From: Longimicrobiales bacterium
GTDB taxonomy: Bacteria; Gemmatimonadota; Gemmatimonadetes; Longimicrobiales; Gaopeijiaceae
NCBI GenBank assembly: GCA_965202805.1
Contig: OZ241869.1
Location: forward strand, 3,520,001 to 3,584,000
Direction of reading: 5' to 3'
DNA length: 64,000 nucleotides
Position numbers and translations under genes: made by a program. Below the pieces are notes generated by a model. The model was given only the letters and a program-made list of their open reading frames with translations. It had not been told where the DNA came from and made no database searches. This document shows, piece by piece, positions 9,145 to 41,520 of the stretch (position 1 is the first letter of the stretch; every line of letters begins with the position of its first letter).

Positions 9145-10578
9145 ATGGGTCTTGACGAACGAATCAACGAGTTCATGCAACCCGTTACGGACGCGGTCGC
9201 CGGCTTCATCTTCTACGCGGTGCCCATCGCCGGCGCCGACGTGCCCCTCATCGTGGCGTGGCTCATCGCCGGTGGCGTGTTCTTCACGCTGTACCTGCGC
9301 TTCATCAACGTGCGCGGCTTCAAGCACGCGCTGGACCTGGTCCGGGGACGCTACACCGATCCCTCGCAGCCGGGCGAGGTCACCCCCTTCCAGGCACTCG
9401 CCACCGCCGTGTCGGGCACGGTCGGCATCGGCAACATCGCCGGAGTCGCGGTGGCGATCTCGCTGGGCGGGCCCGGAGCCACGCTGTGGCTGATCATCGC
9501 CGGCCTGCTCGGCATGAGCACCAAGTTCGCCGAGTGCACGCTGGCGGTGAAATGCCGTCACACCAACCCGGACGGCTCGGTCAGCGGCGGCCCCATGTAC
9601 TACCTGCAGCGCGGCCTGGAGCTGCGGAATCTTCCCCGGGTCGGCCACGGCCTGGGAATCTTCTACGCCGCCGCCATGGTGTTCGGCTGCCTCGGCATCG
9701 GCAACATGTTCCAGTCCAACCAGGCCGCCGCCATCCTCATCGAGGTGACCGGCGCCGAGGGCAGCTTCTTCAGCGACAAGGCCTGGCTGCTGGGCGTCTT
9801 CATGGCCGTCGCCGTGGCGATGGTGATCGTCGGCGGCATCAAGAGCATCGCGCGGGTCACGTCCAAGCTGGTTCCCTTCATGGCGGTGCTCTACGTGCTC
9901 TCGGCGCTGGCGATCATCGGCATCAACGCCGATCGGCTGCCGGCCGCCATCGTTCAGATCTGGCAGGGCGCCTTCTCGCCCGGAAGCATCGGCGGCGGGA
10001 TGATCGGGGTCATGATCATCGGATTCCGGCGCGCCGTCTTCTCCAACGAGGCCGGCCTCGGCTCAGCCGCCATCGCCCACTCGGCGGTGCAGACCGACGA
10101 GCCGTGCACGGAGGGCTTCGTCAGCCTGCTCGAACCGTTCATCGACACGGTGGTCATCTGCACCATGACCGCGCTGGTCATCATCACCACGGTCTACGAT
10201 CCGGCGCTGGCCGATGCCGGCATCAGCGGCATCGAAATGACCAAGACCGCGTTCGAGAGCACGCTCTCCTGGTCGCCCGTGCCCCTCTCGGTCGCGGCGG
10301 TGCTCTTCGCCTTCTCGACGATGATCTCGTGGAGCTACTACGGCCTCAAGGCGGCCACCTACCTGACCGGCGAGAACCGGTCGGTGGAGACGGGATTCAA
10401 GCTGTTCTTCTGCGGCTTCGTGGTCCTGGGTTCGAGCATCAATCTCGCCGCGCTCATCGATCTCTCGGATGCGATGATCTACGTGGTGGCGATTCCCAAT
10501 CTGCTGGGGCTGTACCTGCTCGCACCCGTGCTGCGAAAGGAGGTGCTCTCGTATCGGGAACGGCTCGGCCGGTACTGA
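9145..10578 (+). CDS. Alanine/glycine:cation symporter (AGCS family)
   Basis: GTVGIGNIAGVA, GGPGA, GGPMYY, FSNEAGLGSA; many transmembrane segments. Confidence 0.92.
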   Translation: MGLDERINEFMQPVTDAVAGFIFYAVPIAGADVPLIVAWLIAGGVFFTLYLRFINVRGFKHALDLVRGRYTDPSQPGEVTPFQALATAVSGTVGIGNIAGVAVAISLGGPGATLWLIIAGLLGMSTKFAECTLAVKCRHTNPDGSVSGGPMYYLQRGLELRNLPRVGHGLGIFYAAAMVFGCLGIGNMFQSNQAAAILIEVTGAEGSFFSDKAWLLGVFMAVAVAMVIVGGIKSIARVTSKLVPFMAVLYVLSALAIIGINADRLPAAIVQIWQGAFSPGSIGGGMIGVMIIGFRRAVFSNEAGLGSAAIAHSAVQTDEPCTEGFVSLLEPFIDTVVICTMTALVIITTVYDPALADAGISGIEMTKTAFESTLSWSPVPLSVAAVLFAFSTMISWSYYGLKAATYLTGENRSVETGFKLFFCGFVVLGSSINLAALIDLSDAMIYVVAIPNLLGLYLLAPVLRKEVLSYRERLGRY

Positions 10579-10675
10579 TCCGGGGTACGCGGCGGCGATC
10601 CGGACCCCCCGGAGCCCGCGACGGCCGTCCCTCGATCGCCACATCCACAACTCACTCTTCTTCGGGAGAAACACG

Positions 10676-11104
10676 ATGCTCAGGAACATCTTCGCCGCCC
10701 TCGCCGGCTACATCGCCATGGCCGCCGTGCTCTTCGCTCTCTTCTCTCTTCTCTGGCTGACGCTGGGGCCCACGCGCGCCTTCCAGCCGGGTTCGTGGGA
10801 GGTATCCGGCGGCTGGGTGCTCGGCCAGGTCGTGCTCGGGCTCGTGGCCGCGTACATCGGTGGACGAGTCTGTGCCAGGGTGGCGCGCGATGCCGGGGGC
10901 GCCACGATTCTGATCGGTCTGGTGATGGTGCTCGGGGTGATGACGGCCCTGATGCCGGGGGAGATGGCGGCGGGGCCGCGTCCCGACGACCTGTCGATGA
11001 TGGAGGCGACCGCGGGCGCCCGCCAGCCGGCATGGTTCAGCTGGCTCAACCCGGTAATCGGGGTCGTGGGCGTCTGGTTCGGTTCGAAGAAGTTGCGTGC
11101 GTAG
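10676..11104 (+). CDS. Hypothetical membrane protein
   Basis: RBS GGGAG; about four hydrophobic segments; host-like codon usage. Confidence 0.7.
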   Translation: MLRNIFAALAGYIAMAAVLFALFSLLWLTLGPTRAFQPGSWEVSGGWVLGQVVLGLVAAYIGGRVCARVARDAGGATILIGLVMVLGVMTALMPGEMAAGPRPDDLSMMEATAGARQPAWFSWLNPVIGVVGVWFGSKKLRA

Positions 11105-11330
11105 CGGCCCGATCGCGGGCTGCCCTGCTGGCCCTCCGCGCCATCCCGCCGGCTCGTCGCGCGGGGAGGCTGCCGGTTGCGTTTCGCGCTGCCCGCGATC
11201 CCGTTCGCCTAATCCTCAAGCACGAGTTCCAGTCCTTGCAAATGCCGTCCAGCCAAGTTCAGGGGAGTCCCGTAATGCAAGTTAAGATGTGGTGCTTGAA
11301 TAACTTATGTTACACTGCCGTGTCAGGACG

Positions 11331-11372
11331 TTCGGTACGTTCCAGTACCGAAAGGGTGACCAACAGGGTGAT
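11331..11372. repeat. Left-end palindrome TTCGGTAC-GTTCCA-GTACCGAA and AGGGTGA arm-type repeats
   Basis: Perfect 8-bp inverted repeat at 11331-11352. AGGGTGA at 11353 and 11365, with a third copy at 15043 on the far side of the IS. Confidence 0.6.
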
Positions 11373-11416
11373 TGCAAAGGGAATTACATACCTAAGTAAC
11401 CACGGAAGGGCTAAAT

Positions 11417-11635
11417 ATGTCGAAGCGTGATATCCCTGCGGGCCACATAGATGTTACGGGAGTATGCGTACCATTTAAACATCACGAAACGGGAGAACCG
11501 GTCCTAACGCCGTTTGAGAGACTCGGTCCAGATATCAGAGCCATTCTTTGTCAGGAGGTTGCCGAGTTCCTGCGCCGAGGTGGAGACCCGGGAATTACGG
11601 CGACAAATAAAATGAGAAAGTTATGCGATCCATGA
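11417..11635 (+). CDS. Small hypothetical protein (IS passenger)
   Basis: 72-aa ORF just inside the left TIR after GGAAGG; no recognisable motif. Confidence 0.4.
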   Translation: MSKRDIPAGHIDVTGVCVPFKHHETGEPVLTPFERLGPDIRAILCQEVAEFLRRGGDPGITATNKMRKLCDP

Positions 11636-11867
11636 TGTTCTTTTCCTTATGACACGTGTTGCAAAGAGCTTGCAGGTTGTCCTCATCATCAGTCCCATCA
11701 GCAAATAGTGGCCTGATGTGATCTATCTCGAGCGGAAACTCGCTATTTCGGCGGGGACATCTTTCTCCCTTGCTGTGGTGTGGACATATATACTGGCCCA
11801 TGCATTGACACTGATAGTCGGCACGGATTCGTACAAGCTCCTTCGTGATTTCTGATAGATCAGACAT
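11595..11867 (-). CDS. Small HNH endonuclease
   Basis: CQC...C, LEIDHIRP...GTDDEDNLQALCNTCHKEK: HNH/McrA-type motif with Zn ligands. Confidence 0.85.
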   Translation of the reverse strand: MSDLSEITKELVRIRADYQCQCMGQYICPHHSKGERCPRRNSEFPLEIDHIRPLFADGTDDEDNLQALCNTCHKEKNIMDRITFSFYLSP

Positions 11868-11894
11868 AAGCTCGCCCGTTGGGCTACCAACGGG

Positions 11895-12116
11895 TCACTT
11901 GTTCTCCGCTATACGATGCTGCGTACTCATAGCACGCAGTCCGTTGACGATGACCGCTGCTACAGATCGTGGTGCGCTATCGTCCACCAACCGAGTATAC
12001 GCTAGCGCCGCCAACATGCGCTCGGAGCCGGTGACATTGTATCCGCTCCACGACGCTCCGCTTGCCACGGACGCTAGCGTTTCTTCCAATAGTGTACGGC
12101 CTTTCTGGTTGGCCAT
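11895..12116 (-). CDS. Hypothetical protein upstream of the HNH gene
   Basis: 73-aa ORF with strong RBS (GAGAGGAG), co-oriented with the HNH gene and about 27 nt from it. Confidence 0.55.
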   Translation of the reverse strand: MANQKGRTLLEETLASVASGASWSGYNVTGSERMLAALAYTRLVDDSAPRSVAAVIVNGLRAMSTQHRIAENK

Positions 12117-12210
12117 GATTTTTCTCCTCTCTCTTTCCCGGTGTTCCGTATCTAGGGCGCACCAAGACTAGCTGGACAGCCCCCGATGCGCTACCCCCCT
12201 TGCCGACGAC

Positions 12211-12239
12211 TTGACTTCTGCGCGCCCAATGGTTACTAT
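12211..12239 (+). promoter_or_regulatory. Sigma70-like promoter of the transposase
   Basis: TTGACT-17 nt-TACTAT, followed by an AAGGAGG RBS. Confidence 0.65.
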
Positions 12240-12272
12240 TTTTATGTAAACGAATGAACACCGAAAGGAGGC

Positions 12273-13226
12273 ATGGAGACCAGACCGATGGCGAAGAAGG
12301 CACCCGGCAAGCACTTCAGGAAGGGCATAACGCTCGTCGACCTGTTCAGGAGGTTCCCTGACGATGAGGCGGCGGAGCGTTGGTTCGCGGACACGCGATG
12401 GGGCGGAGAGCCCGTGTGCCCGCACTGCGGCTCGATCAACGTCCAGGCAGGCACGACGCACCCTACGATGCCGTACCGCTGCCGTGATTACCGGAAGTTC
12501 TTCTCGGTGAAAACGGGAACCGTGATGCAGTCCTCGAAGCTTGGTCTCCAGAAGTGGGCCATCGCCATCTACCTGCTGGCCACCGGGATCAAGGGCGTGT
12601 CGAGCATGAAGCTCCACCGCGATCTCGGGATCAGCCAGAAGTCGGCGTGGCACCTGCTGCACCGGATACGCGAGTCGTGGGACGACAAGCAGCCGAGGTT
12701 CGCGGGCCCGGTCGAGGTCGATGAGACCTACATCGGCGGCAAGGAGAAGAACAAGCACGCGAAGAAGAAGTTGAGGGCTGGTCGCGGCACGGTCGGAAAG
12801 ACGGCGGTCGTGGGCGCTAAGGACCGTGAGAGCAACCGTGTTGCCGTGCAGGTGATCGAGCACACGGACAAGGCCACCCTACAGGACTTCGTGGACGAGC
12901 ACGCCGATCCAGGGGCGATGATCTACACGGACGGCGCGACAGCGTACGAGGGCCGGGAGCGGCACGAGACGGTTCGGCACAGCGTGGGCGAGTATGTCCG
13001 GGGACAGGCGCACACGAACGGCGTCGAGAGCTTCTGGTCGATGCTGAAGCGCGGATACTACGGCACCTACCACCGCATGAGCCCGAAACACCTCGACCGC
13101 TACGTGAACGAGTTCGCCGGCCGGCACAACATCCGGTGCAAGGACACCATCGAGCAGATGAAGGAAATCGTCCGTGGACTGGACGGGAAGCGGCTGCGCT
13201 ACCGAGAACTCGTGGGTCGACCTTGA
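12273..13226 (+). CDS. IS1595-family (ISXO2-like) DDE transposase
   Basis: Zn ribbon CPHC...C; HTH region; VEVDETYIGG, IYTDG, HTNGVESFWSMLKR, YVNEF. Confidence 0.95.
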   Translation: METRPMAKKAPGKHFRKGITLVDLFRRFPDDEAAERWFADTRWGGEPVCPHCGSINVQAGTTHPTMPYRCRDYRKFFSVKTGTVMQSSKLGLQKWAIAIYLLATGIKGVSSMKLHRDLGISQKSAWHLLHRIRESWDDKQPRFAGPVEVDETYIGGKEKNKHAKKKLRAGRGTVGKTAVVGAKDRESNRVAVQVIEHTDKATLQDFVDEHADPGAMIYTDGATAYEGRERHETVRHSVGEYVRGQAHTNGVESFWSMLKRGYYGTYHRMSPKHLDRYVNEFAGRHNIRCKDTIEQMKEIVRGLDGKRLRYRELVGRP

Positions 13227-13267
13227 CCGAAGGAAGGCCGAAAGGTTATATTGAGGGAATCAGAGCG

Positions 13268-13300
13268 AAAAAGCCCGCCACCGTGGCAGCGGTGACGGGC
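13268..13300 (-). terminator. Intrinsic terminator for the minus-strand M48 transcript
   Basis: On the minus strand, GCCCGTCACCG...CGGTGGCGGGC followed by TTTTT. Confidence 0.6.
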
Positions 13301-13313
13301 TCCTCTCTGGCTG

Positions 13314-13387
13314 GCCCACGTAGCTCAATCTGGACGGAGCACCTGCCTCGCAGCAGAAGGTTGCGGGTTCGAATCCCGCCGTGGGCT
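13314..13387 (+). tRNA. tRNA-like gene or pseudo-tRNA with a 6-nt anticodon loop; isotype unclear
   Basis: Acceptor stem GCCCACG/CGTGGGC; D stem GCTC/GAGC; T arm GCGGG-TTCGAAT-CCCGC; anticodon arm CCTGC-CTCGCA-GCAGA; no encoded CCA. Confidence 0.75.
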
Positions 13388-13464
13388 CTTACAGAATATC
13401 ATAACGTTTCTGGAGCGCAAGCGCAACCCCTGTTAGGGCGTTGCTGAGCACACGTCAAGTTCTT

Positions 13465-14274
13465 CTACCCCAGTGGCTTACAACTTGTCCCGAGCTTCCG
13501 TCCGTCGACTGCGGTCGGGACCAGGGATTCGCCCGCTGCCAGCTTTGCCGCGATCTCGCGGGCGGTGGTTTGGATATCAAGGTACCGCTGTGCGGTGCTT
13601 GGGTGGGTGGCCGTTGCGGTTGCCGCGATGTACGACGGGTTCGCGCGGCCCAAACGCCTCCAGAAGGCAGCAGCACCAGAAACGTCGTATCCAGCGCGCG
13701 CGGCAAAGTACGTGCCTATGTAGTCCGCTTCCGACTCGAATTCCTGTGAGAAAGCATGGAGGCCCGCGTTGGTGAACTCGCTGCCACGATACCCGGTGAC
13801 GGCACCGTACACAGCATCGCCGAGTGCACCAAAGAAGGCATTCCGACGCTTGGCCCCGATGTGGCCGCAGGCCGCGTGTGCAAGCTCGTGGCCTACCACC
13901 ATGGCGATTTCGGCGTCGTTCTCGGCGAAATCGAGTAGCCCGTTCGACACCATGATATCGGTGCCATCCGTTGCGGCGGTGACCTGGGTTGTCGGTAGCC
14001 GCACAAGGCCGTAGGCGCAGGAGACGGTGCCATCCGGTAGGCTGATGATCTTCGTCACACTGCAGAAGTATCCGTTGGCGGCGAGAACGCGCCGACCAAC
14101 GTCCATGAACCGGAGTAGGAGTTTAGGGGACTGGACAGCGTTCGGGCCGCGCTGACGCGCTTGTTCACGCGCTACCGCCGTTGGACCGGAGTAGGGAGCA
14201 CGGGAGGTGGGGGTTGCACACGCGGCTAGCGCAGCAAGGAGGAGGAACAGGAAAAACGCACGGGACCGATTCAT
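13465..14274 (-). CDS. M48-family zinc metallopeptidase lipoprotein
   Basis: Lipobox LAAC; EIAMVVGHELAH; ESEADYIG; THPS. Confidence 0.88.
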   Translation of the reverse strand: MNRSRAFFLFLLLAALAACATPTSRAPYSGPTAVAREQARQRGPNAVQSPKLLLRFMDVGRRVLAANGYFCSVTKIISLPDGTVSCAYGLVRLPTTQVTAATDGTDIMVSNGLLDFAENDAEIAMVVGHELAHAACGHIGAKRRNAFFGALGDAVYGAVTGYRGSEFTNAGLHAFSQEFESEADYIGTYFAARAGYDVSGAAAFWRRLGRANPSYIAATATATHPSTAQRYLDIQTTAREIAAKLAAGESLVPTAVDGRKLGTSCKPLG

Positions 14275-14329
14275 GACGGGCTTGCCCTCCGTCCGAAGTG
14301 TGAAGACGCGCGGCACAACGGGTGCCGGG

Positions 14330-14479
14330 CCGTTGGCAAGCCTACCGCGCAGGGAAACTGCGGGAAGAACTCCTGCCTGTTCGCCCGGGGCGGGGAGCTA
14401 CCCACGACACCCTTGATGGGCTCTTGTATTCGGCAGGTAACCCGACATGGACTACCTGCGCAGTACGGCTTGCCAACGG
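14330..14479 (-). ncRNA. Candidate structured RNA (~150 nt) of unknown family
   Basis: ~24-bp closing stem (14330-14353 with 14455-14479) and nested stems CGGG/CCCG, CCTGCC/GGCAGG, CCCA/TGGG. A minus-strand TTGCGG-18-TATCCT promoter-like motif lies immediately upstream. Confidence 0.5.
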
Positions 14480-14569
14480 TGAGGATAACCCGACTTGATC
14501 GGTCACCGCAAGCGATGCTATCTTTGTCTTCGACGCTGATGAAAACCAACTTCGGGAGCGGAGCCGTTC

Positions 14570-14737
14570 ATGTCAGAAAAGCGACCACGGGGGCGTCCCG
14601 TCGAGTACCCTTACCCGGACCCGATCCCGGACACGCCGGAGAACATCGCCAAGGCTATCCTCGCCACACCACCGAAGAAACCCAAGGAATGGCGGTTCGT
14701 GCAGAAGCGCGAGAGACAAACGAAGCAGGATCGCTAA
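14570..14737 (+). CDS. Small basic protein with AT-hook-like RPRGRP motif (55 aa; not in the ORF track)
   Basis: MSEKRPRGRPVEYPYPDPIPDTPENIAKAILATPPKKPKEWRFVQKRERQTKQDR*, preceded by GGAG. Confidence 0.65.
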   Translation: MSEKRPRGRPVEYPYPDPIPDTPENIAKAILATPPKKPKEWRFVQKRERQTKQDR

Positions 14738-14739
14738 TA

Positions 14740-14991
14740 GTGGATATTGGCGAAGCCCCGGAGCACGTTGATGAACGTGCCATTTACTCAGTGCCAAGTA
14801 TGTATTCGTTCTTCTGTGGGTGCCAAAACGAGCCCATGTCCAATACCTACATCAAGGATCACACCGCCGTGGTTTGTGGCCGGTGCGGAAAAGCGGAATC
14901 TATCTCGGACATGATTACGTCCTGGAAAATCGACGGAATCAAGATTGACGTCAGAATAAGCCCGAGGATTTTCACACACTTCCGAAAGTAA
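14740..14991 (+). CDS. Small Cys-rich (CxC...CxxC) hypothetical protein
   Basis: GTG start 2 nt after the previous stop; FCGC and CGRC motifs; ends just inside the right TIR. Confidence 0.45.
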   Translation: MDIGEAPEHVDERAIYSVPSMYSFFCGCQNEPMSNTYIKDHTAVVCGRCGKAESISDMITSWKIDGIKIDVRISPRIFTHFRK

Positions 14992-15053
14992 GAACAGTGG
15001 GTCAACTTCGTGGTTACTTAGGTATGTAATTCCCATTGCAAAAGGGTGACCAG

Positions 15054-16220
15054 ATGGGCAAACACGGCAGGAAACTCACCGCCGCCTTCGTGCGGAACGT
15101 CCGGGAACCGGGCCTGTACTGGGACGAGCACGGCCTCGTGCTCCGCGTCAAGCCGTCCGGCTACAAGCAGTGGATCCAGCGGTTCTTCATCCACGGCAAG
15201 CGCCGGGAACTGGGATTGGGTCCCCTCCGCCTCGTGACGCTGGCCGAGGCGCGGGACGCGGCGCTGGCCAACCGCAAGGTGGCCCGAGCGGGCGGGGATC
15301 CGAGGAGGACGCGGCGGCGCTCGGTGCCGACGTTCGAGAAGGCGGCGGCCAAGGTATTCGCGATGCACCGTCCGAACTGGACCGACAGGCACGCGGGCCA
15401 GTGGATGTCGACGCGGCGCGCGTATGCGTTCCCCATGATCGGGCGGAAGCGGGTGGACCATATCTCGCCCGCCGATGTCATGGGGGTGCTGCTTCCGATC
15501 TGGAACGAGAAGCACCAGACGGCCAAGCGGGTCCGGCAGCGGATCGGAACGGTGATGCGCTGGGCGATCGCTCAGGGCCACCGGGTGGACAACCCCGCGG
15601 GCGACGCGATCGGGGCAGCCTTGCCCAAGCCGCCCCGCGTCCAGAAGCACTACAAGGCGCTGCCCCACGCGAAGGTGGCCGGGGCGATCGAGGCGGTCCT
15701 CGCGTCCGAGGCGAGGGTGACGGTGAAGCTGGGATTCGAGTTCCTGGTGCTGACGACCTGCCGGTCCGGCGAGGTGCGGGGAGCGCGCTGGAAGGAGTTC
15801 GACTTGGACGACGGGGTGTGGACGATCCCGGCGGAGCGGATGAAGAGCCGCCGCGAGCACCGGGTGCCGCTGTCGGGGCGGGCGCGGGAGATTCTGGCCG
15901 GGGCCAAGGCGCACGCGCCCCAGTCAGAGTTGGTGTTCCCGTCCGCGCGGGGGCTGGTGCTGCCGAGCTTCGAGTTCGCCGGCCTGCTCAAGGCCCTCGG
16001 GGCCGGGGCCGTGCCCCACGGGTTCCGTTCGAGCTTCCGGGACTGGGCGGCGGAGCGGACGGACGCGCCGCGCGCGGTCATGGCGGCGGCGCTGGCGCAC
16101 GCGGTGCGCAACAAGGTGGAGGCCGCCTACGCCCGCTCCGACCTGTTCGAGCGCCGCCGCGTCCTGATGGAGCGGTGGGCGGAGTATCTGGCGGGCGGAC
16201 GGGAAGGCGCCGAAGCCTGA
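15054..16220 (+). CDS. P4-like tyrosine integrase with N-terminal arm-binding domain
   Basis: LTAAFV...GLVLRVKPSGYKQW...GKRRELGLG; catalytic CRSGE, HGFRSSFR, LAH, AAY. Confidence 0.93.
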   Translation: MGKHGRKLTAAFVRNVREPGLYWDEHGLVLRVKPSGYKQWIQRFFIHGKRRELGLGPLRLVTLAEARDAALANRKVARAGGDPRRTRRRSVPTFEKAAAKVFAMHRPNWTDRHAGQWMSTRRAYAFPMIGRKRVDHISPADVMGVLLPIWNEKHQTAKRVRQRIGTVMRWAIAQGHRVDNPAGDAIGAALPKPPRVQKHYKALPHAKVAGAIEAVLASEARVTVKLGFEFLVLTTCRSGEVRGARWKEFDLDDGVWTIPAERMKSRREHRVPLSGRAREILAGAKAHAPQSELVFPSARGLVLPSFEFAGLLKALGAGAVPHGFRSSFRDWAAERTDAPRAVMAAALAHAVRNKVEAAYARSDLFERRRVLMERWAEYLAGGREGAEA

Positions 16221-16321
16221 TCCGACCGTTCTGCATCTGCCGCTTCCGCGAAGGCGAGAGGCTCAGGAGCCGATTCCGGCCTCCTTGGGAGGTATTCCAA
16301 AGAACGATTAGCACCGTCCCT

Positions 16322-17455
16322 TCAGAGTGCATTCAACCGTACCAGCACGTTCTCAAGTCTCTCCACGAGGTCGTCGATGTGGTCCGCCGCGGTGGCATGG
16401 CTCACCGTCCAACCTTTGTAGCCCTTGGAGTAAGCCTCTTCGGCGTAGGACACCAAGCTTCGATCCGCCCATCGCGCGAGGACCCTCCAGACCTCCCCGT
16501 CCAGTTGATCCTGGTCTTCCGGAATTCGCGTACCGTAGGTAACACCCTTGGCCCATCGCGGCCATCCGTGGAGGACGGTGGGCGGGCAAAGCCAAGCGAT
16601 AGTGGCCGGTTGCGGCCATAGGGAGCACTTGGTCGTGATGGAGACCAAGTGCTTCCCCCATCGAAAACCCGCGCCCTTCTGCTCAGCTGCATCCAGCAGC
16701 CGGGACGCCGCTTGCCGATGCCGGTCGTCGCGAAAGGCGGCCAAGAATGAATCTCGCCTAAGTCTCGGGGCGCCCCTGCCTGTCGCCTTCGCCGTCCGCC
16801 CGATGACGCGCGGAACGAACATCTCCCCCGAACCGCCACCGAAACGCTTGACCTCCACCGCGAGCACTTCGATGTCGCGCATCTGACCGTTGAGAAACTC
16901 CACGACTCGCGCCAACCGATCCGGGATTCGGTCCGCAACGAACAGAAGGCGTAGCCGCTTCGCCGCAAGATTCGTCGACACCCTTTCCCAGAACCTGTCG
17001 GCGTCCGGTTCGTCGTTGCCCTGCAAGAGTACCGCGAGCACCTCATCGGGATTCCGGTCCTGAGAGCGCGCCGATTTCTCAAACGCCTGCCGAAGTTCAG
17101 CCGCTGTCCAAGTCTCGGAAGCATGCGCCGCGTATTCGAGCATCTGGCCGACGATCTTCCGATGGATGTCCGAGTTGTCGCGCAGCTTCACCTCAACGAG
17201 GGTCGGCCTGGCATCCTGATCAATGATGAGGTGGTCGAGCGACCAACGGGCACCGGCGTCGGAGGTCTCGGCAATCCCCTTCTCGCGACCGACCAGGATC
17301 CATCGCCGGGCGTCGTCCGGCCGGATCTGCTCTCCATCGATCAGTTCGGGATGCTCTGCGATCAGTTCTTGAAGGTGGGACTCGGCGGCGAATGTCTCTT
17401 CCTTCACTCCCTCGAATCCTCCCTCCTGACCCCTTATCCATATCCGCTCGGCCAT
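16322..17455 (-). CDS. PD-(D/E)XK nuclease, NucS/DUF91-like, with C-terminal extension
   Basis: ATG 17455 after AAGGAG; ESHLQELI, LDHLIID...LVEVK, IVGQMLEYAA. Confidence 0.75.
   Translation of the reverse strand: MAERIWIRGQEGGFEGVKEETFAAESHLQELIAEHPELIDGEQIRPDDARRWILVGREKGIAETSDAGARWSLDHLIIDQDARPTLVEVKLRDNSDIHRKIVGQMLEYAAHASETWTAAELRQAFEKSARSQDRNPDEVLAVLLQGNDEPDADRFWERVSTNLAAKRLRLLFVADRIPDRLARVVEFLNGQMRDIEVLAVEVKRFGGGSGEMFVPRVIGRTAKATGRGAPRLRRDSFLAAFRDDRHRQAASRLLDAAEQKGAGFRWGKHLVSITTKCSLWPQPATIAWLCPPTVLHGWPRWAKGVTYGTRIPEDQDQLDGEVWRVLARWADRSLVSYAEEAYSKGYKGWTVSHATAADHIDDLVERLENVLVRLNAL

Positions 17456-41446: not shown

Positions 41447-41520
<74 letters not shown>

Follow-up and report, generated by a model that had tools for sequence, protein, structure and literature searches.

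Control by base pairing characterizes the type VIII toxin-antitoxin pairs, such as SdsR-RyeA and CreTA, in which both partners are RNA; CreA works through CRISPR-Cas on DNA. A tRNA-like scaffold in a noncoding role is known from the C4/CI antisense RNAs of P1, P7, and P4. Transporter insertion sequences (tIS) of the IS1595 family were reportedly described by Siguier, Gagnevin, and Chandler in 2009.

According to the accessible text of Mukai et al. (2017), irregular tRNAs adjoin transposon and toxin-antitoxin genes, two irregular variants are lethal to E. coli, and one tRNA0 carries CGC together with U73 (PMC5389517). Bacillus cereus tRNA-Other appears in the accessible part of its description as a predicted pseudo-tRNA by a mobile island that is unused in translation; it works within a larger regulatory RNA, unlike the gene considered here (PMC3399842). 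The accessible parts of PMC5389517 and PMC7609411 describe no antisense partner for irregular tRNAs, and our literature search, which covered openly accessible journals, returned nothing on tRNA cargo in IS1595 elements or on small RNAs antisense to neighboring irregular tRNAs.

Here, we analyze a tRNA-like gene in a 64,000-nucleotide stretch of DNA from a Longimicrobiales bacterium (the window, to which all coordinates without a locus name refer). With allo-tRNAs and the irregular tRNA0/1/2, as far as the accessible text describes them (PMC5389517, PMC7609411), it shares a mismatch between body and anticodon, diverse anticodons, weakened stems, and an association with transposons and toxin-antitoxin genes. 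According to the accessible text, however, those RNAs fold in an 8/4 or 9/3 arrangement, carry long variable arms as well as G-1 or E-loops, and have Ser, Ala, or His identity, whereas the window gene has a 7/5 arrangement of acceptor and T stems, a variable loop of 5 nt, and A20, and is not an allo-tRNA by these criteria (PMC5389517). The searchable text of the supplement of Mukai et al., in which Figure S6 is a picture, contained none of four D-arm strings of the Arg type (PMC5389517). We tentatively read the window gene, with a confidence somewhat short of even, as a damaged, non-decoding member of a set of mobile irregular tRNAs under antisense control, which are perhaps RNA toxins.

An IS1595 element with RNA cargo

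The first-pass annotation had called the gene transposon-borne, and it indeed lies as a passenger within an intact element of 3,656 bp (11379-15034), in which and beside which we distinguish the following features.

11371..11378, no strand: target-site duplication, left copy, 8 bp, ATTGCAAA
11379..11404, + strand: left terminal inverted repeat, 26 bp, perfect; the genome has this end only twice
11595..11867, - strand: passenger, small HNH endonuclease (PF01844, E 8.8e-11)
12273..13226, + strand: IS1595 DDE transposase, 317 aa, open frame (PF12762, E 2.5e-41; zinc ribbon PF12760, E 1.6e-7)
13223..13252, + strand: candidate sigma-70-like promoter directed toward the tRNA-like gene (10/12 match)
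13269..13300, - strand only: hairpin, intrinsic terminator (-22.7 kcal/mol), with a U-tract on the minus and none on the plus strand
13314..13387, + strand: tRNA-like gene, arginine-type body with A20 at 13334, G21, C27.A43, and U73
13393..13403, - strand: candidate backward promoter, weak (extended -10 TG-A-TATTCT, or TATGAT)
13465..14274, - strand: passenger, M48 peptidase facing the tRNA-like gene (PF01435, E 4.7e-17)
14325..14485, - strand: structured leader RNA before the M48 gene (z -5.8; no Rfam match)
14570..14737, + strand: passenger, 55-aa basic protein (no Pfam match)
15009..15034, - strand: right terminal inverted repeat
15035..15042, no strand: target-site duplication, right copy, 8 bp, same as the left copy

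Both PF12762 and PF12760 are present, and terminal inverted repeats and an 8-bp target-site duplication enclose the transposase and its passengers; on these sequence features, the element belongs to the passenger-carrying IS1595 family. Like an IS1595 tIS, it combines a DDE transposase and zinc ribbon with 26-bp inverted repeats, an 8-bp duplication, and passenger genes, but it differs in having RNA cargo, namely the tRNA-like gene and the structured leader. The element ends were found once in the 4.02-Mb genome, and the flanks are also single-copy there. The M48 gene likely starts at the ATG at 14274, which matches an 87% identical relative (P0001), and the 55-aa protein resembles, by eye, small open reading frames that follow other IS1595 transposases.

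Anatomy and identity of the tRNA-like gene

The perfect pairing of the acceptor (GCCCACG/CGTGGGC, 7/7 Watson-Crick pairs), D (4/4), and T (5/5) stems claimed previously holds at 16/16 pairs, and together with G18G19 and the T-loop these stems make up the cloverleaf expected of a functional tRNA. The description of a defective anticodon arm was likewise accurate: the stem (13342-13346/13353-13357) has four pairs plus a C.A mismatch (C27.A43), and the loop, CTCGCA (13347-13352), has 6 nt. The minimum free energy fold has the same 4-bp stem and 6-nt loop, with pair probabilities in the anticodon stem of merely about 0.5, and no alternative 7-nt register was workable (1/5 pairs). The predicted precursor still folds with a cloverleaf. 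A functional decoding tRNA has a 5-bp anticodon stem and a 7-nt loop; judging from its arm, the gene as it stands cannot decode codons.

Its identity is equally irregular. The gene has C3:G70, hence no G3:U70, ends with U73 at 13387, and does not encode CCA, as annotated earlier. It therefore lacks the G3:U70 and A73 of tRNA-Ala, and with U73 and the loop CTCGCA it lacks the A/G73 and the NCG or YCT anticodon of tRNA-Arg. The body is nevertheless of the arginine type: A20 at 13334, an identity mark in the D-loop that had been overlooked, is the main arginine identity element according to the accessible part of PMC8629427. Also overlooked were the G at 13336 in place of the usual A21 and the strong minus-strand terminator between promoter and gene. 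Rfam model RF00005 matches the gene with 56.1 bits (E 2.3e-10). ARAGORN, which the first-pass annotation had proposed to run for score and isotype, does find a tRNA, although its isotype call is only tRNA-???.

The gene shares with C4/CI and the YrlA Y RNA (RF02553) a tRNA-like scaffold in a noncoding role. Unlike C4 and YrlA, it has a canonical cloverleaf, with no Ro/TROVE gene near it or near the related loci scanned and no setting of phage immunity around it, and Rfam gave no match to C4 or YrlA in 10000-17000 at E <= 1. The window gene thus falls outside tRNA-Ala, tRNA-Arg, allo-tRNA, YrlA, and C4 by the tests applied, and the nearest description is that in the accessible text of Mukai et al. 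2017 (PMC5389517).

The host genome has its own tRNA-Ala(CGC) and tRNA-Arg genes with anticodons ACG, CCG, CCT, and TCT, and the tRNA-like gene is present in a single copy. The ordinary host tRNA-Arg(CCG) at 41447-41520 (+ strand) served as control. None of 47 other host tRNA genes checked has CCA at the usual offset, so its lack is uninformative; the host tRNA-Sec, with a longer stem, encodes CCA one base later. The host tRNAs for Gly, Cys, and Thr likewise have U73. Missing CCA and U73 were considered as signs of a mimic and rejected, both being found in ordinary host tRNAs.

Origin of the 6-nt anticodon loop

A 1-nt assembly deletion, which the earlier annotation had asked to be excluded, is not the origin of the short loop, since contigs from two runs, X1 and X2 (depth 30.8 and 55.3), match the window base for base, with 0 differences and 0 gaps over 12989-13900; both runs belong to one study, possibly the source of the window, and the contigs were assembled independently. 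In run X3, from another study, a 683-bp contig is about 89% identical over 13016-13696 (78 differences and 6 gaps) and has a G inserted after 13351, giving a 7-nt loop, CTCGCGA if there is no hidden substitution; this relative is one contig at depth 4.2, in which the insertion may be an error and loop substitutions are not visible. Its anticodon is probably CGC. The homologue check thus yielded in part what the first-pass annotation had named as refuting its proposal, and the 6-nt loop as a functional feature is not borne out, the loop not being conserved.

A conserved family with 6-nt loops was considered and rejected upon refolding of 10 distinct 18-nt arms: four give a better fold, with a 7-nt loop, if position 26 is left out, four look like ordinary tRNA-Arg minus one base, one is ambiguous, and one is the window gene. 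Since the X3 relative has 7 nt and the other 18-nt arms, save the ambiguous one, are better read otherwise, the 6-nt loop is best read as a private, recent deletion from an already irregular gene.

In genomes, the irregular class is rare. Among 60 relatives and 400 genomes of the phylum, no close homologue was found; tRNA-length matches were at most 84% identical, the exceptions to this length being short T-arm matches, and the inspected matches were ordinary tRNAs except for L084. The irregular-arm pattern matched 1/201 genomes of the family (the window's own), 1/301 genomes of the class around G436 (G436 alone), and 0/401 genomes in the phylum of G884. A wider pattern matched 11/19 genomes of the genus, all with ordinary Arg(ACG) genes except the window's own and G016, which has an Arg-type gene with anticodon ACC beside a sequence that on visual inspection resembles the end of an IS1595 element. 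With model R1 over 50 genomes, where 631 matches lay beyond those listed, the best 30 loci were ordinary tRNAs except for the gene in L046. Six viral patterns gave 0 matches, 15 (14 ordinary Arg and 1 irregular), 1, 7 (six distinct arms resembling ordinary Thr/His), 1, and 0, the last pattern being badly designed, and eight plasmid regions inspected after BLAST against plasmids and phages all held ordinary tRNAs. In 84 loci with related transposases (79 genomic, 5 viral), one, L046, has an Arg-type gene, placed directly after the transposase and likewise behind a hairpin, with loop ACGCCAA.

These data bear on whether the gene is an inert hitchhiker, that is, irregular or ordinary tRNA-Arg-derived cargo that is now decaying, while the promoter and terminator serve neighbors or nothing. 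Consistent with this explanation, the gene deviates from the class consensus at three points (6-nt loop, G21, and C27.A43), its anticodon stem is predicted to pair weakly, a single Arg-type copy occurs in 84 related transposase loci, and the gene is single-copy in its genome; 1-nt losses are known in ordinary tRNA-Arg genes too (4 cases). On the other hand, the acceptor, D, and T stems are intact, the X3 relative retains the region with small indels only, the candidate promoter aims at the gene, and such genes occur on several independent IS1595 and IS1-type elements. We regard inert cargo as a substantial though unlikely alternative.

Irregular tRNA-Arg-type genes in metagenomes

A metagenome pattern for Arg-type bodies with A or C at position 36 matched at least 120 rows; the pattern forced A/C at position 36, so that the C36 bias supports no claim. 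We found at least about 50 distinct genes with an Arg body and changed anticodon arms, which often adjoin transposases. Apart from GTC, CGC is the commonest anticodon among the matches listed (at least 22 rows), besides TCC (at least 9), ACC (at least 6), AAC (at least 5), and others. One invariant tRNA, which combines a GTC anticodon with G73 and an arginine-like D-loop (A20), is frequent in metagenomes from sediment and groundwater (L147-L265); in a count that also took in four earlier loci, it accounts for at least 59 rows, and it was set aside as probably housekeeping.

In an alignment of 45 sequences, left from 52 distinct ones once 4 ordinary Arg deletions and 3 near-duplicates had been removed, 92.7% of cells are paired, with 84.5% in the anticodon stem; the D and T arms had been fixed by the search pattern. 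Double-sided changes occur at all five anticodon-stem pairs; descent from different tRNA-Arg isoacceptors could give part of this signal. As similar irregular genes recur with paired stems, the window gene goes beyond an isolated case of a ruined host tRNA. The earlier argument against random decay stands to this extent, although the 6-nt loop itself is probably private damage. The set may mix unrelated things, because the model does not distinguish the body from that of ordinary tRNA-Arg (76.2 bits for the window gene versus 75.2 bits for the host tRNA-Arg(CCG)), and the window gene is assigned to the class, and linked to its partner-bearing members, by its type of body, its odd arm, and its place in a transposon, with no diagnostic signature. 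Irregular genes are annotated as tRNA-Ala, -Gly, or -Val or as pseudogenes, and a mobile class may thereby be overlooked.

Pfam was run on 143 of 178 open reading frames from 37 related loci. Transposases adjoin eight of these loci: IS1595 at L160, L165, L166, and L201, IS1-type at L172 and L225, and DDE_Tnp_1 at L180 and L211. Defense-type neighbors (one Abi_C, one DUF4145, and one Gp49/RelE-like gene with HTH, besides SNF2) are found at some of the 37, and loci of a freshwater lineage have housekeeping genes as neighbors. By Pfam name, neither PIN/VapC nor any other anticodon nuclease turned up beside the 37 loci.

This neighborhood is relevant to the function originally suggested for the gene, a decoy in which a non-decoding elbow mimic absorbs anticodon nucleases, such as VapC, or other tRNA-binding toxins. 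Broken decoding with an intact elbow, the defense-type genes at some related loci, and the unpaired acceptor ends of several related genes would suit a decoy. The damaged part, however, is the anticodon stem-loop, which VapC-type nucleases recognize, and the 6-nt loop is not conserved. Because no anticodon nuclease was detected in the element or, by Pfam name, among the scanned neighbors of the 37 related loci, a decoy is without direct support, and we consider it very improbable.

In six related genes (L153, L183, L200, L205, L230, and L260), the top of the acceptor stem is unpaired and the loops hold AAC, TAC, or TCC; such genes would be unchargeable and are better candidates for pure elbow mimics. 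At L165, L180, L226, and L255, irregular Arg-type genes are clustered with other tRNA-like genes (Rfam tRNA), recalling the polycistrons in the accessible text of Mukai et al. (PMC5389517).

Antisense partner RNAs beside related genes

A site complementary to the anticodon arm occurs within 330 nt (p <= 0.05 against 40 shuffles per gene) in 16/59 irregular genes, 1/29 canonical tRNA-Arg genes, and 1/15 invariant GTC genes; the 59 include 10 probably ordinary tRNAs, and the 16 amount to about six groups, namely eight freshwater loci, L115/L172/L225/L251, L159, L244, L178, and, weakly, L261. About a third of the related genes have nearby a small RNA gene that is antisense to the 5' half. In clear cases, a -10 hexamer precedes the start of the site by 5 to 8 nt, and the site lies either downstream on the strand of the tRNA-like gene or on the other strand; next comes TTGAG(C/T/G), which can pair with the 5' strand of the D stem, and a terminator closes the unit. 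Twelve partner loci were tested for a duplex with the whole 5' half, and nine of them gave z-scores between -2.8 and -14.8, the nulls being rough (8 shuffles; the control L147 reached -3.6 and the partnerless L201 -3.7). At the other three (L243, L178, and L261), it is not outstanding. Arm and site covary: four arms occur within one freshwater lineage, and at L115, L172, L225, and L251 one partner scaffold goes with four anticodon loops. Rfam searches of 20 related loci reached the gathering score with tRNA alone, the partner RNAs being without a family.

We read the small partner RNA as a putative silencer of the tRNA-like RNA, a polarity suggested by its variable part, which tracks the irregular arm rather than any host tRNA that is conserved. 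The polarity might be reversed, with the tRNA-shaped RNA as a regulator or antitoxin on a C4-like scaffold, the partner RNA or an mRNA as the regulated or toxic component, and the window copy as an orphan guide. Pairing is symmetrical, and the second site of the partner could pair with the D stem of host tRNA. Yet that same tracking of the irregular arm argues against a reversal, as do a window guide without a target and the lack, by eye, of an open reading frame between the partner's promoter and terminator. Like the decoy, this arrangement seems very improbable to us.

If a small RNA indeed serves to silence a tRNA by pairing with its anticodon and D arms, and covaries with it, this would be a new regulatory logic and could yield a programmable switch for suppressor tRNAs. 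The partner lead in the relatives, which is the main value of the finding, would make the function of transposon-linked irregular tRNAs, as outlined in the accessible text of PMC5389517, testable with two short RNAs.

Transcription signals at the window gene

The window gene is a poor object for such a test, being damaged and without a separate partner. Within 330 nt, no partner was found (helix test p 0.93; duplex z -1.5), the best duplex within the element was no better than in 30 shuffles, and no -10-proximal partner site for this gene was found anywhere in the genome. A separate promoter-to-terminator RNA complementary to positions ~7-38, which defines the proposed module, is thus missing here. 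Genes borne on IS1595 at L046, L084, L160, L165, and L209 have no partner either. Visual inspection suggested a degenerate partner within the promoter region (13225-13260), but it was dropped, duplex tests giving no support.

The promoter assigned earlier to the gene (TTGACC, 18 nt, TATATT, overlapping the transposase stop) could be retraced and is plausible, if unproven, and the gene is probably transcribed; promoter-like sites in 11300-15100 number 3 versus 1.2 +- 1.2 in shuffles. The candidate backward promoter, which the standard promoter scan missed, sits 5 nt past the 3' end of the gene; between it and the terminator at 13269-13300, an antisense RNA about 125 nt long would be made. Moreover, no minus-strand terminator was flagged between the M48 stop and 13300, for which reason the M48 mRNA is predicted to run antisense across the gene. 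The convergent M48 gene fully explains the terminator. Backward promoter and terminator occur together in 2/31 partnerless irregular genes (the window gene and L217), 0/16 partner-bearing genes, and 0/131 controls, a comparison that rests on two cases and on a rule chosen after the feature had been seen. The terminator alone occurs in 8/31, 1/16, and 11/131, respectively; among the 131 controls, as in the tally of 60 relatives, there may be ordinary tRNAs of two genomes that are unpublished (G037 and G056), which enter into no other claim.

The position of the gene, 88 nt past the transposase stop with no plus-strand terminator found between them, also invites the explanation that it is a processing tag, whose intact elbow and acceptor stem would attract RNase P and 3' trimming, so that transposon transcripts are cut, ended, or stabilized while the anticodon drifts; the tRNA-like gene might, for example, stop transposase read-through. 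The cloverleaf of the predicted precursor, the same position of the gene at L046, L165, and L201, and the freely varying anticodon arms of the class fit such a role. The gene precedes the transposase at L160 and L166, however, 83/84 related elements are without an Arg-type copy, and dedicated antisense partners in 16/59 genes would be unexplained. A processing tag therefore appears improbable.

Returning to mobile irregular tRNAs under antisense control, we propose that the passenger of this IS1595 transporter element stems from a tRNA-Arg-derived class with a changed anticodon arm (CGC here) and would be transcribed from the promoter at 13223-13252. In its intact 7-nt form, it may be cut out by RNase P and receive CCA from a host enzyme, and it might then harm or perturb translation at GCG codons, with the wrong amino acid or as an uncharged tRNA. 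As such a form would be harmful, an antisense RNA is proposed to unfold it and so hold it silent. In the window element, the antisense RNA would come from the opposite strand, via the promoter at 13393-13403 or M48 read-through, and stop at 13269-13300. Having recently lost one loop base, and with G21 and C27.A43 in addition, the window copy would be attenuated and non-decoding. It is tempting to speculate further that the class forms an RNA-only addiction or defense module, with a reprogrammed tRNA-Arg-derived RNA as toxin, a coevolving anti-tRNA RNA of 60 to 110 nt as antitoxin, and the window gene as a partly disarmed cis-antisense version; this extended proposal is doubtful. Its partners would be RNA only and controlled by base pairing, like type VIII pairs, with toxicity only proposed here. 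Unlike in type VIII pairs, the proposed toxin would be tRNA-shaped, and the antitoxin would pair directly with its anticodon and D arms.

Other features of the element and related loci

The element is inserted at the start of a P4-type integrase gene (15036-16220, + strand; PF22022, PF13356, and PF00589), which it parts from its upstream region. The leader RNA has homologues at L080 (5470-5660) and L082 (5920-6100), that is, in three IS1595 loci including the window. It is rod-like and conserved, contains two GAAYA internal loops that lie opposite each other, has a CAACGGCCCGGCRCC end, and lies about 40 to 50 nt before the passenger gene. T-box-like coupling of the M48 leader to the tRNA-like gene was considered and rejected because L080 and L082 have the leader without a tRNA-like match. 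A related IS1595 element (L072) carries two degenerate tRNA-like passengers (2461-2533 and 2586-2647, - strand), one apparently without a D-arm. ARAGORN further detected a long-variable-arm tRNA with anticodon TTA (ochre) at G000 C1 502084-502165, about 6 kb from IS1595 transposase remnants, which resembles the UUA irregular tRNAs in the accessible text of Mukai et al. (PMC5389517).
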